Shown: piece after piece, positions 2,914 to 41,138 of the stretch
How the letters are laid out: each line of letters starts with the position of its first letter
How positions within the stretch are numbered: the stretch's first letter is position 1
IMG/VR virus record: IMGVR_UViG_3300005468_000008
Span: 1 to 43,088 of that record
DNA length: 43,088 bases
Source of the DNA: a virus
Strand: one strand, 5' to 3'
The notes under the pieces: model-generated
What the model was told of the DNA's origin: nothing
Databases searched by the model: none
The model's input: the letters and a program-made list of their open reading frames with translations, nothing else
Translations under genes and position numbers: made by a program

Positions 2914-3954
2914 ATGTGTAAATTCTTAAGCGCAATCGTAAAACGTGACGGCGAGGTATTGTACCGTCCCGAAACAGACTCCCACGAGAACCTCGTGGAC
3001 TACTTTGGCTTGTCGGACTCGGGGGTGGATAACTTTGTGAGGGTGGAGTTTACATCGGACACCCCCGACAAACCGGATACCTATAAACTCCGGGTGGACG
3101 AGACAAAAACGCCCGCCTGGTTTGAGGAATATCGGGAGAAATCAATATCATATCTGCGTGACAAGATCAAGTCTATAATCGTCACGGGTGAGCGCAAAAT
3201 CCTGATGGGTGGGTGTTGGATATTGTCGGAGGCAAAGGTTGGGCGACTCTTGGCGACGAGGGTGATCTGGATGAAGAACTCTCAGGTCAACGAGATGCGG
3301 GAGAACTCTCGGGTCAACGTGATGTGGGAGAACTCTCAGGTCAACGCGATGCGGGAGAACTCTCAGGTCAACGCGATGCGGGGGAACTCTCGGGTCAACG
3401 TGATGTGGGAGAACTCTCGGGTCAACGTGATGTGGGAGAACTCTCAGGTCAACGAGATGCGGGAGAACTCTCGGGTCAACGTGATGTGGGAGAACTCTCA
3501 GGTCAACGTGATGTGGGAGAACTCTCAGGTCAACGCGATGCGGGGGAACTCTCAGGTCAACGAGATGCGGGGGAACTCTCAGGTCAACGAGATGTGGAAG
3601 AACTCTCAGGTCAACGAGATGCGGGAGAACTCTCGGGTCAACGTGATGCGGGAGAACTCTCAGGTCAACGCGATGCGGGGGAACTCTCAGGTCAACGTGA
3701 TGTGGGAGAACTCTCAGGTCAACGAGATGTGGAAGAACTCTCAGGTCAACGAGATGCGGGAGAACTCTCGGGTCAACGTGATGCGGGAGAACTCTCAGGT
3801 CAACGTGATGTGGGAGAACTCTTGGGTCAACGTGATGCGGGGGAACTCTCAGGTCAACGTGATGTGGGAGAACTCTTGGGTCAACGTGATGTTGGAGAAC
3901 TCCAAATCTCCCAACCCGCCCAAACAAGACTTCCGCGAAAAGGCTTCCCAATGA
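2914..3954 (+). CDS. Nonapeptide-repeat (predicted beta-solenoid) protein
   Basis: 346 aa. A non-repetitive N-terminal domain of about 120 aa is followed by 23 copies of [EGK]-N-S-[QRW]-V-N-[VAE]-M-[WRL]. The start follows the upstream stop by 2 nt, and the stop overlaps the next ATG (ATGA). Confidence 0.75.
   Translation: MCKFLSAIVKRDGEVLYRPETDSHENLVDYFGLSDSGVDNFVRVEFTSDTPDKPDTYKLRVDETKTPAWFEEYREKSISYLRDKIKSIIVTGERKILMGGCWILSEAKVGRLLATRVIWMKNSQVNEMRENSRVNVMWENSQVNAMRENSQVNAMRGNSRVNVMWENSRVNVMWENSQVNEMRENSRVNVMWENSQVNVMWENSQVNAMRGNSQVNEMRGNSQVNEMWKNSQVNEMRENSRVNVMRENSQVNAMRGNSQVNVMWENSQVNEMWKNSQVNEMRENSRVNVMRENSQVNVMWENSWVNVMRGNSQVNVMWENSWVNVMLENSKSPNPPKQDFREKASQ
3274..3894 (+). repeat. Tandem repeat, 23 x 27 bp (GAGAACTCTCAGGTCAACGTGATGTGG)
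   Basis: All 23 units were read out. 20 of 27 positions are invariant; variation is restricted to unit positions 1, 2, 10, 11, 20, 25 and 26. Confidence 0.95.
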
Positions 3955-4220
3955 CCGAGTTTACCAACATTTCACTCTACCCCCCCTCCATCCAAACGGG
4001 GAAAACGCAACACCCGGTCGTAATCGCCTGTATTGGGTGTCACGACGATTCCTTGGGGCTGACAGATGGCCCGGCTGAATCGGTGAGGCTCAACCTGTAC
4101 CGGAGTACTGCGTACCACTTGTGCCCAAAGTGTATCACGCCGGGACAGGCGGCCAGGAGGGATAAGGGGGTGACGGACTATCACCATCATAAATCGGCAG
4201 GGAAGAAGGTGGGGGGTTGA
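3951..4220 (+). CDS. Small zinc-ribbon protein (CxxC...CxxC)
   Basis: ATG 3951 overlaps the upstream stop (ATGA). Sequence begins MTEFTNISLYPP and carries CIGC and CPKC pairs. It shares a frame with the alternative repeat-frame ORF 3213..4220. Confidence 0.55.
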   Translation: MTEFTNISLYPPSIQTGKTQHPVVIACIGCHDDSLGLTDGPAESVRLNLYRSTAYHLCPKCITPGQAARRDKGVTDYHHHKSAGKKVGG

Positions 4221-4245
4221 CATTCACCGGAGAATTGATTATATT
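4217..4245 (+). promoter_or_regulatory. Near-consensus sigma70 promoter with no downstream ORF
   Basis: TTGACA (4217-4222), a 17-nt spacer, then TATATT (4240-4245). Downstream there are only 6- and 11-codon ATG ORFs before a hairpin at 4455-4473. Confidence 0.6.
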
Positions 4246-4251
4246 GTCCTC

Positions 4252-4473
4252 CTGCACTGGCCACGCAGACTTTTTCCCTCATTCACCGAACCTTCCCCGT
4301 GGCCGGAGCAGAGTTCTATCGGTGGGTGGGGGAAATTTTGTTTCTACCGCGTTGCCTGGGGGTGGCCCCAAAACTTCCGCCGTAAATGGTGGTTGGGTCG
4401 AGTAGAGAGGCCTCGATGATCGCGCCGGTCGAGAAAAGCGTCCAGTTCTAAAAACCCCCCTGTTGAAAGGGGG
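4252..4473 (+). ncRNA. Candidate non-coding transcript 1 (class unknown)
   Basis: Bounded by the promoter at 4217-4245 and the CCCCC/GGGGG hairpin at 4455-4473. It contains the helices 4259-4265/4298-4304 (GGCCACG/CGTGGCC) and 4357-4370 (TGGGG-GTGG-CCCCA). No credible ORF. Confidence 0.3.
4455..4473 (+). terminator. GC hairpin (possible terminator of transcript 1)
   Basis: CCCCCC-TGTTGAAA-GGGGG. There is no immediate U-tract, so intrinsic-terminator status is uncertain. Confidence 0.3.
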
Positions 4474-4706
4474 TGGGGGGATAGTAAAATGACGTTTTTG
4501 CTCTAGGCTTTCCGGGCTGGGCGACCCTTCGGGTGTGACGCTTACTCGCCGTCGCTCGTAAGCGGATGAGAGTGTGAATGTCAGTCGGGAGAAATCAAAG
4601 TCGGTCGAACTTCGGCCAGCACACCTATAAAAACCGCTCTTGATCTTGAATAACTAGAGCGGGTGAAAATGCTTTTCGAATCAAACTGGGGATCGCGGCG
4701 GGAACG

Positions 4707-5099
4707 ATGGGAAGAGGTAAGGCGAGAAAGTTCGGAGAGGGGTATTACAAGGGGGTTTGGTCAAGGCGAAATAAAGACTACGGGTTCGTGTACGTTTTCG
4801 ACCTCGGCTTTGATACCCTTTACAAAATAGGATGCTCAAAAAGCTGGGAGAAACGACTCAGGCATCTCCGTGCGGGGAACCCAAACATGGGATTGGTTGC
4901 ACTCTGGAGGGTGGGGCATATGAAGCGAGACGAAGAAAAAATCCATCTTGTGATGTCGCACCGGTGGGTCGAACGAGAAATCTTTAGGTTGCGGGGGGAT
5001 GATATCTTATTATTAAAACAGTTCTTTCAGGATCACCCAGTCGATGACTTCCGCGACGATAATTGGAAAGTCCTTCGCAGACTCGCAGGTATCGAATGA
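4707..5099 (+). CDS. T5orf172 / MUG113-type (GIY-YIG-like) domain protein
   Basis: 130 aa. YGFVYVFD...LYKIGCSKSWEKRLRHLRAGNP...EEKIHLVMSHRWVEREIFRL matches the T5orf172 domain pattern (G.vYv...-KIG.S....RL..L...-P...E..iH......-E.F.L). Confidence 0.75.
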   Translation: MGRGKARKFGEGYYKGVWSRRNKDYGFVYVFDLGFDTLYKIGCSKSWEKRLRHLRAGNPNMGLVALWRVGHMKRDEEKIHLVMSHRWVEREIFRLRGDDILLLKQFFQDHPVDDFRDDNWKVLRRLAGIE

Positions 5100-5138
5100 G
5101 TCTGCTTCATGATTTACCCATTTATCTATCCCCCGCAC

Positions 5139-5167
5139 TTGACTCTGAGTTTCCCTTTGTGTATAGT
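5139..5167 (+). promoter_or_regulatory. Sigma70-type promoter driving a non-coding leader or RNA
   Basis: TTGACT (5139-5144), a 17-nt spacer, then TATAGT (5162-5167). The spacer shares TGAGTTTCCC with the promoter at 5513. Confidence 0.5.
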
Positions 5168-5173
5168 GAAACA

Positions 5174-5507
5174 CGGTGGCGCAAAGAGGGAGGTCTCGTG
5201 AGAACGAGTGATGGGTGGGTCAGCCGGATAAGGAATCCATCCCAAAGGGCCGCCCCACACCGAACGCCGAGTGACCCATGCGCCACCGTTAATTTATACA
5301 CAGTCACCCCACGATCAACCAGGATAAACGATGTCAGCCTCCCCCTATAAGACGTTAGCCCTCCAACCAAGGTTCGGCCACCCGGAGAACTCGGTGGTGA
5401 AGATTCTCGATTTCCCCGATCCTGAAAGTTGGATGGACTTCGTGGAGGCAATAAATATCTTGGGGGGCGGGAACCGGCGGGGGTTAAGATGAAAATAAAT
5501 CCCGCCG
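5174..5507 (+). ncRNA. Candidate structured RNA 2 (long leader or stand-alone ncRNA, class unknown)
   Basis: Perfect 11-bp long-range helix 5173-5183/5279-5289. GNRA-capped hairpin 5195-5208 (CTCGT-GAGA-ACGAG). Helix 5217-5222/5272-5277. Hairpin 5378-5397. Two mutually exclusive 7-bp pairings of 5500-5507 with 5466-5472 or 5475-5481. All overlapping ORFs look non-coding. Confidence 0.35.
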
Positions 5508-27132: not shown

Positions 27133-27264
27133 ATGAAAAAATCCCCGGATACCCCGGCTTGGGGTACGCCAATATCCGGCGCAGAACTTGCACGGATGTT
27201 TCATCGCGGAGAGTCCACCATTTACAATATTCTTTACGGTAACACCTGGAAACATCTGTTATAA
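27133..27264 (+). CDS. Orphan 43-aa helix-turn-helix protein, oriented against the late operon
   Basis: MKKSPDTPAWGTPISGAELARMFHRGESTIYNILYGNTWKHLL. The HTH resembles the C-terminal DNA-binding tails of the two NUMOD4-HNH ORFs. The 3-prime end overlaps the convergent gene by 6 nt. Confidence 0.5.
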   Translation: MKKSPDTPAWGTPISGAELARMFHRGESTIYNILYGNTWKHLL

Positions 27265-28632
27265 TTTCTTCTTGTAGAGTACCCCAGGGTTTCCCGCCGA
27301 CGGGCTGTTTTGGCCAGCCGTACCTTGCACCGCGCCGGTTCCAGTTGCCGTACCCGGTGCGCCACCCAGCCCTATGTCCCCGCCAGCATAATTAAGTGTA
27401 AGCGAGTCGGTGTAATTGTGGTAGAAGAGGTCTATGAGACCACCATTCCCCGGCCCGCCAGCCCCGCCGCCATGTCCAGACTCGTTGGCTGTGGTTCCCC
27501 CTGACGCATTTGCGCCTCGTCCACCGGGGCCACCCTTGCCGCCCTTTACGGTGATCGTGCCGTTACCCTCTATGGTATGAAAAGCAACCCACACTTTCCC
27601 ACCCGGCTGTCCGGGTGATCCCCCTACACCATGCCCCCCTATACAGTAACCAGCCCCGGACGTTCCCGAAATCCCGCGCGCCCCACCACCACCACTCCCG
27701 GAACCAGCCGCATATCGGACAAACTTAACGAAGTCTGTCAGCGCGGTTGTGGCTGTGGTGAACGCCCGATCCATATACATAGTGATGAAGTCGAGTCGTT
27801 TCCCACTAATCGCTGATGGGGCGGTGCAGGAACCAGCCGCTCCACCTACCCCGCCAGTTTGCGCCCCGGCCCCACCCCCATTCCCACCAGCCACTCCATT
27901 AGAACCGATACAGTCTGTGACAGTAGACCCCGCGCCACCGTTTGTCCCGGCTCTGACACCAGCGTCGCTCCCATCTCCTCCGGCGGGGCCAGCCGTTGCA
28001 GAGGCACCACGGGTGAGATATTGGTCACTCTTGGCGGTTGTCGCTCCGCCATCAGAACCACTCGCGCCCACCGTGGAGTTCGTCGTGTTGGCGGGAGCGT
28101 CTCCACCAGCCGCCCCGGCCGCCCCCGTGTCATTTAGGGTTCCATATAATCTCAGACGACCAGTTCCAAAGATTCTAAACCCAGCCGTATAAATGTCAAT
28201 CCCCGGATTAACTGTTAGATTGATGGCATGCATATCCCGCGTGAGTGTCGTGTCTGCGGTCGGAGTTATTGATCCGTCTATTCCTCCGCCCCACCAAGCA
28301 TCAACTGCGTCCAAGTCTGCGATAGTCGCAATGACCGTCGTATCCACCTTGATGGTGTCGCGTGTACCTGGGGAAATGTTGATGGTGGTGTCGCCGGTGA
28401 CAGACGTACCCGCCGAGTCCAGCCTGACTATCCCGTTCCGGTACGAGTAGTACACCCCCGCCGACCCTCGGGCAAATATGAACCCATGATCCCACCCTGT
28501 CACACTCTGTGTGCCGAGGGAGTCAAAGTCCACACCCTTGTTCACCTTCGCCGTGTCCATTTGCCGGTTCTGGGCGAACGATTGCCCAAATGTCAATACC
28601 AGCGAGATTAGTATTAAATTGATATATCGCAT
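27259..28632 (-). CDS. Glycine-rich beta-solenoid-like protein with an N-terminal signal peptide
   Basis: The 457-aa protein starts with MRYINLILISLVLTFGQSFAQ, a Sec-type signal with an A-x-A-like site. Long GG.G/GGAG-rich tracts then resemble the glycine-rich domains of phage fibre proteins. Confidence 0.7.
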   Translation of the reverse strand: MRYINLILISLVLTFGQSFAQNRQMDTAKVNKGVDFDSLGTQSVTGWDHGFIFARGSAGVYYSYRNGIVRLDSAGTSVTGDTTINISPGTRDTIKVDTTVIATIADLDAVDAWWGGGIDGSITPTADTTLTRDMHAINLTVNPGIDIYTAGFRIFGTGRLRLYGTLNDTGAAGAAGGDAPANTTNSTVGASGSDGGATTAKSDQYLTRGASATAGPAGGDGSDAGVRAGTNGGAGSTVTDCIGSNGVAGGNGGGAGAQTGGVGGAAGSCTAPSAISGKRLDFITMYMDRAFTTATTALTDFVKFVRYAAGSGSGGGGARGISGTSGAGYCIGGHGVGGSPGQPGGKVWVAFHTIEGNGTITVKGGKGGPGGRGANASGGTTANESGHGGGAGGPGNGGLIDLFYHNYTDSLTLNYAGGDIGLGGAPGTATGTGAVQGTAGQNSPSAGNPGVLYKKKL

Positions 28633-34435: not shown

Positions 34436-35400
34436 TACGACCAGGTAGTCGGGATGGTAGCCGCCGTCGAGTGCGTGTAGAGAATCGCAGACGACTGGTT
34501 GACGACTGTGGAATCAACCCCGGAGTCCTGCGAGAGCGCGTAGTCCGCCCTGCGATCACCGTAGATCGAACCACCGGCAAACCCCATGAGGTTGCCGTAA
34601 TCCATATTGTTACTACCGCTTTGGTCTGGGGAAACTTGAGCGGCGGGAACCACATTTCTGAGTTCCTCTTGCGTTTCATTTATATCGCAAGATCGGACTA
34701 TTGCATCCCATTGCTGGGTCTTCTCGTTTAGTCTCTCACGGTGGCTCACGCCTTCCGCCTCGTTGTCCCGTCGGACTTTCGAGTCAATTAGAGAAGATTT
34801 ATAGAGGACAATTATATCCTTAGAGTTCTTCCATTCCAAAAGGGTCTTATCGCGCTTACTCCAGTTACATTCCTTGCAAACTACCGCAAGATTTGTAATG
34901 TCGCCCGATCCACCTTTTGAAACTGGAAGAATGTGGTCTATGTGATACTGAGTGATTTCCTTTGCACAATACTTGCATTTGCCGTCCCACTCGCCTAGAA
35001 GTTTCACGATGGCCGCCTTGGTCGGCTGATACTGACCAAATTTCACACGACGAGCGTGTTGGTTGGCGCGGTTCATAATCGCGTACTCTTCTTTGTGTTC
35101 TGCAATCCAGCGACGAGTCGCGGCCCGATGTTTCTCCGGGTTAGCGGCCCTTTTGGCTGTTTGACGAGCAAGTATTGAGTCCCGGTTCTTCAAGTAGGAA
35201 CGCCTTTTATAAAGCTTGTTGCGTTCTTTGTCGAGTTCGGGATGGAGTTTACGCCACTTCCGACAAGCCTCTGCGCCATGAGCCGACTGCCACCTCTTCT
35301 TTGCGGACATCTCGTTGCCGGAATAACAATCACAGCAGAGAGTCCCGCGTTTGCGGAATTGGTCAACAGTTTTCTCGATATGGCACTGAGCGCAGATCAT
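34435..35400 (-). CDS. HNH endonuclease (classical HNHc) with a Cys-rich N-terminus and an unassigned C-terminal extension
   Basis: CKYCAKEITQYHIDHILPVSKGGSGDITNLAVVCKECNWSKRDK is a canonical HNH motif. TAATG overlap with the capsid gene stop. Confidence 0.85.
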   Translation of the reverse strand: MICAQCHIEKTVDQFRKRGTLCCDCYSGNEMSAKKRWQSAHGAEACRKWRKLHPELDKERNKLYKRRSYLKNRDSILARQTAKRAANPEKHRAATRRWIAEHKEEYAIMNRANQHARRVKFGQYQPTKAAIVKLLGEWDGKCKYCAKEITQYHIDHILPVSKGGSGDITNLAVVCKECNWSKRDKTLLEWKNSKDIIVLYKSSLIDSKVRRDNEAEGVSHRERLNEKTQQWDAIVRSCDINETQEELRNVVPAAQVSPDQSGSNNMDYGNLMGFAGGSIYGDRRADYALSQDSGVDSTVVNQSSAILYTHSTAATIPTTWS

Positions 35401-36524
35401 TAGGCGTACACTTCCTCGGTCAGGAAGTCCTCAATATACATCGTGCCACGTTCCTCTAAGTTGTTGTCTGATAAGGGTTTATCCTCTTTCCGACGCTCCA
35501 TGTAATTTTCAAGGCCATACGCCCTAGCAACGGCGTTTGCACCAATGAGAACATTCATGTGAACGTCGGTGGCGGAGACACCAGCACCCATCGTCGCGGC
35601 AGTCAGGTCTTCGAGCTTATTGGCCGCCACCGTGATGACGTTGTAATCGAACGACGTTTCCACGATGTTCGACTCACGCACCACGATACCAGCCCACGAA
35701 CCGATGGCGTTCTGAAATACCGGGTTGTCCTTGGAGCGCGGCATCCCATTGATGTTACCGTCCTGCCAGAGCGAGTCCGCCCGGAGAGTCCGTCCACCAC
35801 GCGGGTGAATCAGGAGGATCAGATGACCCTCGCCGTCCACGTTGATGGCCGAGATGTTCTCCTGTTGCCAGAACACACGGCACAGTTCGAGCGCGTCCGT
35901 GTCGAGCTTGTCGGTCGAGTCCACATCCGGCAACGTCGCCTTGCCCTTACCGAAAATCCGGTTAGGATGTGCGGTCGGGTCGGCTTCGGTCACACCGAGT
36001 TCCCTAAGCACGTTCGGAGAAAATCCCGAATACAGCGCAAAGAGTATTGAGCGGTCGTACTGCGACGCCAGCGAGTTGGCAAGGGCGTTCTTCGCCTCAC
36101 TCATCAGGCTGTAAGGCGAACGCTGTAACGTTGACCGCCCGTTGATCTTGACGCCCTGACGAATGTGGGCAATCTTGACCTTGACGTTGTGCATCGTGAT
36201 GCCGTCCTCGCTGTCAACCAACTGGACGTTCCCGACAACACCATCGTTGAACCATGCGGTCGTTCCGCCTCCTCCGACACCGGAGAGTTTCTTCATCAGG
36301 CCCATCGTGATCTGATCGCCGCTGTCCTTGGACAACTGCGTCTTCTGCACGATAGGCTTGTTGAGGATGTGAGCGTCAAGCGCACCTTCCCCGCCCTTGT
36401 CGGTGCCAATAAGCCCCTTAAAGACGAGAAGGTTGTTGACCTGTTCGTGAAGCAGGGTATCCCAGGCTTTGCGCGTATTCTGATGCGCACTCGCCTGTGC
36501 AAACCCCGTAGTGTAATATCCCAT
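35400..36524 (-). CDS. Major capsid protein (HK97 fold, N4-gp56-like family)
   Basis: 374 aa following the scaffold gene. Segments such as KDSGDQITMGLMKKLSG and VKIAHIRQGVKINGRSTLQRSPYSLMSEAKNALANSLASQYDRSILFALYS resemble N4-gp56-type capsid proteins. Confidence 0.85.
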   Translation of the reverse strand: MGYYTTGFAQASAHQNTRKAWDTLLHEQVNNLLVFKGLIGTDKGGEGALDAHILNKPIVQKTQLSKDSGDQITMGLMKKLSGVGGGGTTAWFNDGVVGNVQLVDSEDGITMHNVKVKIAHIRQGVKINGRSTLQRSPYSLMSEAKNALANSLASQYDRSILFALYSGFSPNVLRELGVTEADPTAHPNRIFGKGKATLPDVDSTDKLDTDALELCRVFWQQENISAINVDGEGHLILLIHPRGGRTLRADSLWQDGNINGMPRSKDNPVFQNAIGSWAGIVVRESNIVETSFDYNVITVAANKLEDLTAATMGAGVSATDVHMNVLIGANAVARAYGLENYMERRKEDKPLSDNNLEERGTMYIEDFLTEEVYA

Positions 36525-37589: not shown

Positions 37590-39539
37590 TTACCCAAACT
37601 GTGCGCCCGATGTGTTGCCGAGCAAGTCGGTCTCGATTGCCTTGGAAGGCGTTGCGGACTGATTGGGTTTCGCGGCACCACCGGCCTGAGATGCGGCGAT
37701 AAGCATTTGCATCCGGGCCTCCTTGATGTGGGCGATATACTTCTGTTTGCCCCGGATGTCCGAGGTCTCGAAGATGTCCTCCCAGAGCATCGGTGCCCCG
37801 AGAGCCATCATGTTCATAATGTCTAGATGTTCAGCCCTGCGTGCCGTGGGATTGGACGCAACGTGGTCGATGACCAGATCAAACCGACCAACCGTGATGT
37901 CGTTCCAGACCTTCTCGCCAATCTGCTTGTTGATGGTGATAATCTTCTGCCCTTGCTCCACCGACACCAACCCGGAGGCAACCGCCTGCTCCATCTCGGG
38001 CGGGATGTAGTTGGGGTTGTAGTCGCCAAGAATCCTGACACGCCTCTCGGTCGTGTAATTCTTCTGCATGATCTCGATGATCTTTTTCCCCTCGATCTTA
38101 CGAGAAACAAAGAAGTTGTCGAACGCCTCACTGATAATGGTCTCTCCTGGCCCCTGCAACGCTTGGATGCCACGGCCACTTTTGACGCCCTGCGGAACCT
38201 GTCCGAGAGAGGCGTCACCCAGACCGGAGATTTCCTTCATCTCGGCTGTCGCGGCCAAGTCCATGTTGACAATGGCGGGGACAGCCGTCAGGTCGGAGGT
38301 AATCGGCGTCACCGCGTCACGCGGGATACCGTTGACCTCGATATACTGCCCCGTCATACCAAGGCGACGCTCCACCGCCTCCACGTCATCGACGGCACCC
38401 TTCTTGCCAAAGAAGGAGTTCTTGGCCGCCGTACCAAGGATGTGAATGATCTGGGCGTGACGCTTGTTCTTCTCGTCCTGGGGGTCGAGCAAGTCCTGGA
38501 CGATCCCGGTGATTCGCCCGTTGTCGGTGTAGGCGAAGTACCCGGTGATGTCGAAGTGCTGGTACTCGGATCGCTCGTTGGAGAGCATGATCCGTCCAGC
38601 CGAGTAACTAATCTGAACGGTCTTGATCCGTTTGTTGATGAGCTTGTGGGGGACACCTGTGGTGGCTATCGCAAGTTCAACCGCCGCCTCGACATCCTTC
38701 TTCTTGAGTCCATCCGGGACGGCGGTACGTTCACCCGTTGCCTCATTGACGATGAACTGTGCGTCAATCCATTTGTATTTCTGGCAACGCAGGACAATAA
38801 TCTTCTGGGCTTCCTTGTCGTAGATGAAGTCCCGCGAGACCCCGCCAGCAAGGCCGTAGTCTTCTGTGCCCGTGCCCTCAAACTTGAACGAGTCCGACGT
38901 TTCACCCTCGGTAGAAAGGTCTCCGATCTCATCCTCGAACTCGGGCCACCGGGCAATCATGGCGTCCTTCGACATCGGGACTTCCTCAATCACCCCATCG
39001 CGGTCGGTGAGGTCATACCTCTCATGGTCGCCAATGACGTACACGCGGAACGGGTTGATGCGGCGAACCGTCACCTCGCCAAGGGGGTCAAGCTCATCGC
39101 CCCACTCGCATTTGGAATACCCCCTACCGCAGATAATCATGTCGCGGAAAATCTTAGCCCGCTCGATGTCCAGGTTGTTGACATCGCTGACGTATTTGAG
39201 AAGATCGGTCATTATCTCCGCGATCAGGTAGTCGCTCTTATCGTCGCGGGGGTAGACCTTCTCGTCGGCCTTCGATTGTCGCTGGGCACCACAGATTCGG
39301 TTGACGAACTTCCTGATCTCGTTGAACGAGATGATTGGCCGGTTCTGGGATTTGAGTTTGGCCCGGGCCTCGGTGGACCATTGGCCAAGCTCGCCATCCA
39401 CCCAGTTGTTGACGTAGGCGAAACACTTGAGCCAAATCTCACGTTCCTTCTCCTCGGCGAGTTTTGCGTCGCGGTAGAGTTTGAGGATGTGAAGCGGCTC
39501 GGAGTCGGCGTCTGTGATTTCTTTTTTAGATTCTGCCAT
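37590..39539 (-). CDS. Portal protein
   Basis: 649 aa. Its size, its position directly after TerL and its overall sequence pattern are typical of podovirus portals. Confidence 0.85.
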   Translation of the reverse strand: MAESKKEITDADSEPLHILKLYRDAKLAEEKEREIWLKCFAYVNNWVDGELGQWSTEARAKLKSQNRPIISFNEIRKFVNRICGAQRQSKADEKVYPRDDKSDYLIAEIMTDLLKYVSDVNNLDIERAKIFRDMIICGRGYSKCEWGDELDPLGEVTVRRINPFRVYVIGDHERYDLTDRDGVIEEVPMSKDAMIARWPEFEDEIGDLSTEGETSDSFKFEGTGTEDYGLAGGVSRDFIYDKEAQKIIVLRCQKYKWIDAQFIVNEATGERTAVPDGLKKKDVEAAVELAIATTGVPHKLINKRIKTVQISYSAGRIMLSNERSEYQHFDITGYFAYTDNGRITGIVQDLLDPQDEKNKRHAQIIHILGTAAKNSFFGKKGAVDDVEAVERRLGMTGQYIEVNGIPRDAVTPITSDLTAVPAIVNMDLAATAEMKEISGLGDASLGQVPQGVKSGRGIQALQGPGETIISEAFDNFFVSRKIEGKKIIEIMQKNYTTERRVRILGDYNPNYIPPEMEQAVASGLVSVEQGQKIITINKQIGEKVWNDITVGRFDLVIDHVASNPTARRAEHLDIMNMMALGAPMLWEDIFETSDIRGKQKYIAHIKEARMQMLIAASQAGGAAKPNQSATPSKAIETDLLGNTSGAQFG

Positions 39540-39582: not shown

Positions 39583-40925
39583 TTATGCGGCCATCCAATC
39601 AGATGTGGCGTGTTCCCTGCGCCGAGCGTTCAAGAACGCCTTCCAGCCCCTGACGGGTTCCTTCTGCGTTGGCATCCCATAGATGTGTGCGATGGCGTAT
39701 TTAATGAGGTCACACATATGATCTTGCTTTTTCTCGGGACGCTCAACGGGGTTCTTGTCTTCGCCAACCTTCAAGTCTTTCCACTTGTAGACCTGCAACT
39801 CTTCCCTGGCGTGCTTACACGACCTGAATATCTTTAGCTTGGGAGTCCCATCCTCGCGAATCTTGAAGTATTCCTTAACTCTGTTGATCCCAGCCCTGAC
39901 CTCATTCTCAGCCGGGTCGAAGTAGAGCCCGTTATCCGAAAACTCGTCGATGACGGATCGGCCCGTCTTCCCGTCCCGGTTGCGGCAGGAGGGGTCAATC
40001 AAGTATTGCCGGATGGTCTGTTCATGAGACTTGGTTTTGATAATCTCCGCGACCTCACTTACCAGACGGCTGGACTGATAGAACTCGTCGTAGAGATAAA
40101 CGTCCCCCTTTGGGGAAACGGCGAACCATCCAACGCCGGTGGGGTTACGAAAGCCATGATCGAGCGAGATGAACCTGTACCAGTTATCAGGAATCTCGAA
40201 ATCTTCGACGACGTGAGGAGCCTTGTCTTGGAACTCCTTATACACCAACCCCTCGAACGAGTCGAACGAGCCGTAGATGTACCGCTTGATCCACTCCTCG
40301 GGGTACTGAGCCAGCATCCCCTCAACATATCCCTTGGGGAGGTAGGTATTCTCGAAGGTTGTCGAATGAACCCAGAAATAATCGGGCGTTGGGTTCTGAA
40401 CGAACATCTGCCACACCCAATCGCGCCCCTCGGGGTTGGATGTCCCAAACCCGGTGTGATGTACCCTCTGGCGACGAAGACGGCCCACCAGGGCCAACCA
40501 CATATCCTTGTTGCACTCGGTCAACTCATCAACGTAGAAGAAGCCCAGGTTTAACGACTTGATCTTGTCGAAGGCATCTTCGAGGGCGCGGAAGAGAATC
40601 GTTGAGCCGTTGGCAAATTCGAGCGAGTTCTCCGACTGATTGAACTTCTTGACGAACCCGGACTCTTTAAGGGTGGTTCTGTGGCCGTCCACATCGACGG
40701 GAAATTCAAGAATCTCCTTGCGCGTGGTGTCCCGGAGTTCCGGGTAGGTCATACGCCCAACGAGGCCCAGGTTGTTGGGGTACCACATGGATTGGAGGAT
40801 GGCCTCCGCCGAACCACAGATCGTCTTGGCGCAACCCATTCCCCCGAAATAGCCCCGGAACTTCGCTTTCGACCCATGGAACAGGGCTTGTTTGGGAAGC
40901 GGGGTGTAGGCGAGTTTGATTTCCA
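39583..40925 (-). CDS. terL: Terminase large subunit
   Basis: Walker A-like GGMGCAKT and Walker B LGFFYVDELTE, followed by a C-terminal nuclease-type region. Start chosen at GTG 40925, directly after the upstream TAG with GGAGAAG 6 nt upstream; the ORF track extends to 40974. Confidence 0.9.
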
Positions 40926-41138
40926 CTACGGCTTCTCCGCCCCACACACGGGGCACGCCTTGGCAAACGCCCAATTCGTCCTACTACACCGGCAATCCCA
41001 CCCCTCATCACCAGCCCCCTCGTATTTGTAGATCATGCCGGGGACTTCGGCACCGTCGTGTTTGCGGGAGACAATCCGATAATGCGCCCCATGGCGTTCA
41101 CGGGCTGGGACTACGTGCCCTGAGAAGACTAAACTCAT
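40926..41138 (-). CDS. Small protein with a RanBP2-type-like zinc finger
   Basis: 70 aa. WDCRCSRTNWAFAKACPVCG fits W-x-C-x-C-x3-N-x6-C-x2-C (the canonical spacing between the first two Cys is x2-4). ATGA overlap upstream. The stop abuts the TerL start. Confidence 0.6.
   Translation of the reverse strand: MSLVFSGHVVPARERHGAHYRIVSRKHDGAEVPGMIYKYEGAGDEGWDCRCSRTNWAFAKACPVCGAEKP

Follow-up and report, generated by a model that had tools for sequence, protein, structure and literature searches.

The window analysed here comprises all 43,088 bp of the IMG/VR virus record IMGVR_UViG_3300005468_000008, a complete soil phage genome bearing direct terminal repeats. At the start of one non-coding gap in its early region (4221-4706), we found a promoter match (P1), two interleaved RNA helices (helix A and hairpin B) and a U-tract in direct succession. 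We propose that these elements together constitute a promoter-proximal terminator or attenuator unit, which would produce a non-coding RNA of about 85-95 nucleotides (nt). We assign this reading a probability of about 0.48, somewhat short of even odds. It builds on observed motif matches, fold energies, genome-wide rankings and the absence of a coding signal. The initial annotation of the same gap had suggested a phage-encoded small RNA of 200-250 nt running from this promoter to a CCCCC/GGGGG hairpin at 4455-4473. A promoter-driven non-coding RNA is indeed plausible, but a structured RNA of that length extending to that hairpin was not supported by the analysis.

Predicted promoter P1 and two interleaved helices

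The elements of the proposed unit, together with a second promoter-like sequence (P2) farther downstream, are as follows.

4217-4245, plus strand: P1, TTGACA-17-TATATT, an 11/12 match to the promoter consensus with a predicted transcription start near 4252
4252-4311, plus strand: helix A, an inverted repeat forming a 5'-terminal hairpin (arms 4252-4265 and 4298-4311) that starts at the predicted +1
4273-4335, plus strand: hairpin B, a predicted fold with a 17-bp lower stem (4273-4289 with 4319-4335) and an apical part
4336-4345, plus strand: U-tract UUUUGUUUCU, directly 3' of hairpin B, tail score 4.21
4463-4490, plus strand: P2, TTGAAA-16-TAAAAT, a promoter-like 10/12 match, in the gap and co-directional, with a predicted start near 4497

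P1 has the hallmarks of a sigma70-type promoter, namely hexamers resembling TTGACA and TATAAT, a spacer within 16-18 nt, an intergenic location and the same direction as the neighbouring genes. We found it where the initial annotation had placed it, at the stop codon of the zinc-ribbon gene P0003, with the -35 hexamer overlapping the TGA at 4218-4220. It had been called the best promoter in the genome, which is correct for the plus strand, but it is tied at 11/12 by a minus-strand match, TTGACA-16-TAGAAT at 28199-28172. This second match lies inside the open reading frame (ORF) 27259-28632, points in the direction of the late genes and is a possible promoter inside the late region. In simulations with a first-order Markov model, 0.12 matches of at least 11/12 were expected per genome, compared with two observed, and 3.0 ± 1.7 matches of at least 10/12, compared with eight observed. 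Six matches of at least 10/12 are on the plus strand (501, 4217, 4463, 5139, 5513 and 12679). Because all six are located in gaps of the early region and are co-directional with the genes, P1 is very likely a real sigma70-type promoter, the activity of which we infer from these matches.

RNA structure above the chance level is confined to the first 85 nt of the predicted transcript (4252-4335). The calculated energy was -23.1 kcal/mol for helix A (z = -4.63) and -31.4 kcal/mol for hairpin B (z = -3.33), and for neither of them was any of 200 shuffled sequences as good. The lower stem of hairpin B consists of 17 consecutive base pairs, including three G·U pairs. The arms follow each other in the order A5', B5', A3' and B3', by which the two helices are interleaved: helix A and the apical part of hairpin B are mutually exclusive, and helix A could form alongside the lower stem of hairpin B only in a strained pseudoknot. 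Folding of growing prefixes gave helix A as the minimum-energy structure for 3' ends between 4305 and 4330 and hairpin B from 4335 onward, with a base-pair probability for B at equilibrium of 0.9997. Hairpin B is 4 kcal/mol more stable on the plus strand than on the minus strand because of the three G·U pairs, and the strand preference of the helices is modest. The pairing of 4259-4265 with 4298-4304 noted in the initial annotation is present, but it is only a part of helix A (4252-4311), and the dominant hairpin B had been overlooked.

We also performed a custom terminator scan, in which the 14-75 nt preceding every U-rich tail in the genome were folded with their ends forced to pair. Hairpin B with its U-tract (-30.6 kcal/mol, tail score 4.21) ranked first among 53 U-tract sites on the plus strand, was stronger than any of the 83 sites on the minus strand and was the only top candidate that folds as a clean single stem-loop. 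U-tracts of this quality occur about once per 800 nt on the plus strand, and by our own estimate one would start 0-2 nt from the stem by chance with a probability of about 0.4%. Hairpin B thereby has the composition of an intrinsic terminator, a stable GC-containing hairpin followed within 0-2 nt by the U-rich sequence UUUUGUUU from 4336.

The gap is non-coding. With P0003 counted as a gene, the 486 nt of 4221-4706 form the largest true intergenic gap of a genome in which the median gap is 11 nt, ending at the T5orf172/MUG113 gene at 4707-5099. Log-odds scores for codon usage, with 36 long ORFs as the training set, were negative across 4221-4670 in all three plus-strand frames and positive in both flanking genes. 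No coding frame was found by this scoring, and the earlier description of a non-coding gap of about 490 nt was confirmed. ORFs of 62, 28, 21 and 55 codons within the gap were rejected as genes with codon scores of zero or below. The GC content of the gap is 55%, which is coding-like.

If the elements act together as we propose, P1 would be an early promoter of the host-sigma70 type with a transcript start near 4252, and the nascent RNA would immediately form the 85-nt element of two interleaved helices, in which helix A would be the stable fold during synthesis and hairpin B the equilibrium fold. Together with UUUUGUUUCU, hairpin B would act as an intrinsic terminator with the 3' end within 4336-4345. 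The unit would release about 85-95 nt of non-coding RNA, and fewer transcripts, whether started at P1 or arriving from the early operon upstream, would continue into the T5orf172 gene. The polymerase would reach the U-tract with helix A already formed, and termination would require hairpin B to displace it. Since helix A forms first and must yield to hairpin B, termination could be tunable, as in an attenuator. P2 would then be the natural promoter of gene 4707 with a leader of about 210 nt, and the remaining 360 nt of the gap, not specially structured, would comprise P2 and this leader. Like the activity of P1, the position of the 3' end is inferred here, as are any regulatory effect and any action of the short RNA in trans. 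The hairpins at 4455-4473 and 4634-4662 are left without a role by this proposal.

Judged from its sequence features, the object is most likely an ordinary kind of phage regulatory unit in an unstudied lineage. It is improbable that the unit instead encodes a trans-acting phage RNA of about 90 nt belonging to an undescribed class, in which the interleaved helices (13-14 bp and 17 bp) would switch between read-through and a terminated, released form. Such an RNA could be a host-directed regulator or an anti-defence decoy. Target prediction against the start regions of the phage genes, as envisaged in the initial annotation, yielded no target better than the shuffled controls: the duplex scan gave -57.8 kcal/mol, compared with -51.8 ± 3.6 kcal/mol for the shuffles, the minimum of which was -65.2 kcal/mol.

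The remainder of the gap and its neighbourhood

The other features of the gap are two hairpins with a minus-strand orientation and one candidate mini-ORF.

4416-4451, plus strand: candidate mini-ORF of 11 codons (MIAPVEKSVQF) with a GAGG-N5-AUG start signal, unproven
4455-4473, minus strand: CCCCC(C)/GGGGG hairpin with a T-run on the minus strand (CCCCCTTTCAACAGGGGG GTTTTTAGAA), terminator-like for the minus strand only
4634-4662, minus strand: 7-bp hairpin CCGCTCT/AGAGCGG, whose upstream plus-strand A-run becomes TTTTTAT after it on the minus strand

The initial annotation had described half a kilobase as structured, but 4346-4720 folds no better than shuffled sequence. The segments 4340-4385, 4346-4462 (z = +0.5), 4385-4450, 4497-4570, 4570-4625 and 4497-4720 were no better than their shuffles (z from -0.15 to +0.84). 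Weakly better values were found for 4428-4502 (z = -1.85) and 4625-4706 (z = -1.2, not significantly structured). Whole-transcript folds gave z = -1.0 for 4252-4500 and z = -1.5 for 4252-4706. The small hairpins listed in the initial annotation are all present (4259-4265/4298-4304, 4357-4370, 4524-4535, 4539-4564 and 4634-4662). On the plus strand, the 4455-4473 hairpin overlaps the -35 hexamer of P2, has an A-run upstream and is not followed by a U-run. It reads as a minus-strand terminator and not as the RNA end that had been placed there. The hairpins in 4449-4473 and 4628-4662 share the lead TAAAAACC, and both have the appearance of minus-strand terminators inside a plus-strand region. We searched the gap and the T5orf172 gene (to 5600) for minus-strand promoters and found none with a match of at least 8/12 between 4445 and 5004. 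For this reason, a minus-strand small RNA ending at the 4455 hairpin was rejected.

The mini-ORF at 4416-4451 is the only ORF in the gap with a positive codon score (4386/4416-4451, +0.49), being too short for significance. The stop codon is directly adjacent to the 4455 hairpin and to the -35 hexamer of P2, and the ORF may be an upstream ORF or encode a micro-protein. ORFs of 6 and 11 codons had been reported before the hairpin. The 11-codon ORF is indeed there, but the 6-codon ORF (ATG at 4489) lies after it. The G-rich tracts reported earlier are real as well. Three of the four genomic copies of GGTGGGGG lie within 4208-4480 (4208, 4325 and 4472), all on the plus strand; the minus strand contains no copy. 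One of the three directly adjoins the -35 hexamer of P1, and copies of the related GGGGGTGG are located at 4358 and 4469. The cluster may represent a protein-binding motif or a G-rich RNA motif. For 4340-4374, a resemblance to a CRISPR repeat was considered by eye and dropped for want of a repeat copy and of Rfam support.

The genes flanking the gap and the landmarks of the late region are listed below.

3951-4220, plus strand: P0003, translated as an 89-residue zinc-ribbon protein with CxxC...CxxC and a basic tail, codon score +0.16
4707-5099, plus strand: P0001, a 130-residue T5orf172/MUG113-domain protein (Pfam PF13455 and PF10544)
35400-36524, minus strand: major head protein
37590-39539, minus strand: portal
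39583-40974, minus strand: large terminase

The plus-strand genes, between about 0.5 and 19 kb, are for the most part orphans; those with recognisable products encode YopX, a thioredoxin-like protein, an HNH endonuclease and a nucleoside deoxyribosyltransferase. The minus strand carries the head and packaging genes, and the phage is without any sign of being temperate. At the left end (360-530), several promoter-like sites containing TTGAC (about 371-400 and 501-529) precede the first gene at 557, an arrangement that fits an early promoter cluster for the host polymerase.

The TGA stop codon of P0003 (4218-4220) is overlapped by the -35 hexamer of P1. P0003 had no match to a Pfam family at E-values up to 0.01, nor to PHROG, PADLOC or PDB sequences, and its single-sequence AlphaFold2 model was unusable, with a predicted local distance difference test (pLDDT) score of 37. 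An exhaustive HMMER search retrieved two small distant relatives with 41% and 33% identity. They comprise a 72-residue protein encoded on a Logan contig of 3,021 nt and a 66-residue protein encoded on ENA contigs of up to 4,877 nt. Because both retain the two CxxC motifs, we take P0003, as judged from its sequence, to be a real gene. The family is tiny (66-89 residues): apart from P0003, we found just two metagenomic sequences, and conservation comprises CxxC...CxxC, GL(S/T)xG and, close to the C terminus, Y-x-H-x-K. The assignment of P0001 rests on scores of 32.3 bits for PF13455 (cut-off 22.3) and 29.5 bits for PF10544 (cut-off 20), and the Shine-Dalgarno sequence of its gene is weak. An inverted repeat (4476-4491/5119-5134, 14/16 complementary) brackets the T5orf172 gene. 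It is close to the chance expectation and could be the mark of a mobile cassette. A PADLOC scan of six neighbouring proteins gave no match, and no anti-CRISPR (Acr) or anti-CRISPR-associated (Aca) gene was recognised near P1 by Pfam, PHROG and PADLOC scans. Farther downstream, the promoter at 5139-5167 (TTGACT-17-TATAGT) is followed from its predicted +1 by a 117-nt hairpin (5173-5289, -52.5 kcal/mol, z = -3.1) and then by UUAAUUUAU. The design of 5139-5302 is the same as that of P1 with helix A and hairpin B.

Searches for related RNAs and related loci were made in several collections. Rfam 15 gave no match in the whole window at the gathering thresholds, and at E-values up to 10 the segment 4100-5450 gave only two chance-level matches to unrelated families, a microRNA family (16.5 bits against a threshold of 92) and a frameshift element (14 bits against 40). 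The comparison with Rfam suggested in the initial annotation thus assigned the region to no family. T-box, riboswitch, RAT, CRISPR-repeat and tracrRNA families were without an Rfam match in the same segment, and a scan for tRNA and tmRNA returned nothing. There was no match among the GenBank phages to 3900-5400 by blastn or to P0003 by tblastn. Scans of IMG/VR with P0003, P0001, a 53-residue protein and a 217-residue lipoprotein found no relatives. With YopX, 80 loci at 29-48% identity were found, none of them resembling the gap, and with the N-terminal domain of P0002, three loci that are not syntenic. The best portal match in IMG/VR was 46% identical, and the nearest phages (45-46%) share only the head and packaging module. 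Exact DNA-word scans gave one chance match with a 17-mer in IMG/VR, none with a 29-mer in metagenomes, and two chance matches with a 19-mer in metagenomes, one coding and the other in an unrelated gap. A portal scan of a genome collection hit one metagenome-assembled genome at 24% identity, which is of no use for host assignment.

Alternative readings of the gap

Several observations weigh against a promoter-proximal terminator unit. Hairpin B does not have the dimensions of a typical terminator (a stem of 5-14 bp, a loop of 3-8 nt and a GC-rich base): it is 63 nt long with a large apical part, has three A-U pairs at its base and is absent from the standard terminator scan. For helix A, the minus strand gives the slightly more stable fold (-26.5 versus -23.1 kcal/mol). 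The convergent junction at about 19 kb is without a canonical U-tract terminator, and the host may therefore not rely on U-tract signals. The promoter at 5139, with its long hairpin from +1, favours a plain leader as discussed below. The nearest phages by portal identity (45-46%) are without the whole early region. Among 5.8 billion proteins, P0001 and the 53-residue protein match only themselves, as did P0003 in that search, and the exhaustive HMMER search adds only two distant relatives of P0003. An exact-protein look-up found three contigs from other samples that are 99.97-100% identical to the window, with three single-nucleotide polymorphisms, all outside the gap. Samples containing this phage are JGI 3300005549, SRR5456970 and ERZ27265262.

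The most serious alternative, which we regard as less likely than our proposal, is a plain long leader, in which transcripts from P1, with or without those from P2, read the whole gap as the 5' untranslated region of the T5orf172 gene and no discrete small RNA exists. Helix A or hairpin B would then be only a 5'-terminal stabiliser or an RNase III processing site. Helix A starts at the predicted +1, like 5' stabiliser hairpins, and the promoter at 5139 likewise has a hairpin from +1 (5173-5289, z = -3.1) followed by a small gene. Hairpin B, with 17 bp and more, falls within the size range of RNase III substrates, for which the sites in the T7 early region are a reference, and apart from B there is no plus-strand terminator in the gap. 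A plain leader, however, does not explain why a U-tract with seven of eight U residues stands exactly at the foot of hairpin B. Furthermore, an untranslated leader of 455 nt needs a reason in a genome with such short gaps, P2 would be redundant, and the weak Shine-Dalgarno sequence of gene 4707 reveals no obvious translational logic. The structured RNA of about 220 nt originally proposed, from about 4252 to the CCCCC/GGGGG hairpin at 4455-4473, shares with our proposal a real promoter and an interval without a credible ORF. Its terminal hairpin is GC-rich and stable, and it could stop transcription if host terminators lack U-tracts, as the 19-kb junction also does. We consider this RNA very unlikely, as its transcripts would first need to get past hairpin B and the U-tract, and neither 4252-4500 (z = -1.0) nor 4346-4462 (z = +0.5) is notably structured. 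In addition, the hairpin at its end overlaps the -35 hexamer of P2 and, on the plus strand, is preceded by an A-run and lacks a U-run on its 3' side, as expected for a minus-strand terminator.

Other explanations dispense with a terminated early transcript or give it a different purpose. The gap could be a regulatory or replication region acting as DNA, for example through binding sites on the clustered GGTGGGGG motif or as an R-loop origin, or it could be the decayed flank of a mobile T5orf172 cassette, with the folds being incidental. The concentration of three of the four genomic GGTGGGGG copies within 270 nt, the inverted repeat (14/16) flanking the T5orf172 gene, the coding-like GC content and the formation of both helices on the minus strand too are consistent with such an origin. 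So is the distribution of the flanking genes, as T5orf172 without detectable relatives and P0003 with only two distant ones are expected of recently acquired DNA. Yet short repeats of this kind are near chance for a 1.4-kb region (about 0.3-1 expected by our own estimate), no iterons, tandem repeats or AT-rich unwinding stretch were found, and why promoter, hairpin and U-tract adjoin so exactly would be left unexplained, which makes this a decidedly improbable account. Finally, the transcript might be an anti-defence RNA decoy, either a guide-RNA mimic like viral single guide RNAs (sgRNAs) or a solitary-repeat RNA. Phage sgRNAs of 89 nt have recently been described (preprint 10.64898/2026.06.01.729453), and the predicted RNA of about 90 nt resembles them in outline, as its first 21 nucleotides are free and are followed by a long imperfect stem ending in a U-tail; the strong promoter and an early region dense with orphan genes would also suit a decoy. 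Nexus and tail hairpins, however, are missing between the stem and the U-tract of the predicted RNA, no CRISPR-related family was among the Rfam matches at E-values up to 10, which comprised only two at chance level, and no Acr or Aca gene was recognised nearby. A decoy therefore appears extremely unlikely.

Comparison with known regulatory units

A promoter-proximal terminator or attenuator unit can be compared with several known arrangements. Attenuators of the trp, pyr and bgl type use alternative hairpins, and as in these, an early helix and a later terminator hairpin would compete within one short leader. Unlike in those attenuators, helix A and the lower stem of hairpin B share no nucleotides and are interleaved in a pseudoknot-like manner instead of overlapping. 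A leader peptide is also lacking, and Rfam gave no match to a T-box, riboswitch or RAT family. The E. coli ompA leader and the T7 early region contain 5'-terminal stem-loop stabilisers and RNase III sites. The resemblance to these lies in helix A at or within 2 nt of the start, in the long imperfect duplex of hairpin B in the early leader and in the same layout at the neighbouring promoter 5139. These leader elements differ from hairpin B by being without a U-tract at the foot of the stem, and here the promoter-like P2 intervenes between hairpin and gene.

Orphan promoter-terminator small-RNA genes of phages include lambda OOP, PreS and P22 sar (reviewed in PMC12197685). The candidate unit has in common with them an intergenic promoter, the absence of an ORF, a Rho-independent terminator hairpin with a U-tail and the 50-100-nt size class, and it differs in having no antisense partner and no predicted target better than shuffled controls.

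The closest described arrangement that the P1 unit resembles appears to be the lambdoid PR'-tR' region, in which a constitutive promoter directly after the Q gene is followed by a terminator just downstream and gives rise to a short RNA (PMC7547250). In Stx phages, this short RNA is the Hfq-binding small RNA StxS, which is processed to a 74-nt form (PMC7547250). In both, a small gene is immediately followed by a promoter that is close to the consensus and presumably constitutive. An intrinsic terminator a short way downstream limits the transcript to a short non-coding RNA (here a predicted one), and several hundred non-coding bases separate it from the next gene. The short RNA may be a regulatory by-product or may function as a small RNA. 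The predicted RNA is about 90 nt long here. The 6S RNA of lambda has 194 nt. The differences concern the regulatory context. No Q-family protein was recognised here, the upstream P0003 being without a Pfam match, and the first 30 transcribed bases revealed no -10-like pause element. The downstream genes are of the early type and not late lysis or head genes, the late genes being on the other strand, and the phage does not appear to be temperate. A Q-family antiterminator upstream of P1, as expected for a lambda-type Q module, was not detected (Pfam at E-values up to 0.01, PHROG and PDB sequences). The strong promoter and nearby downstream terminator giving a short RNA are present at the sequence level only. 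We therefore do not apply the label of a Q antitermination module to a unit whose upstream protein lacks Pfam, PHROG, PADLOC and PDB matches and has a model pLDDT of only 37.

The practical value of the analysis is a corrected transcription map of the region, as a prediction made from the sequence of a single genome. If the proposed unit is real, it would add an RNA terminated close to its promoter to a phage lineage for which hardly any annotated relatives exist (46% identity for the nearest portal), and it would pack a promoter, competing helices and a terminator into a compact cassette of about 130 bp. The lambdoid logic, by which a constitutive promoter and a proximal terminator yield a short regulator RNA, would then extend beyond the temperate coliphages.

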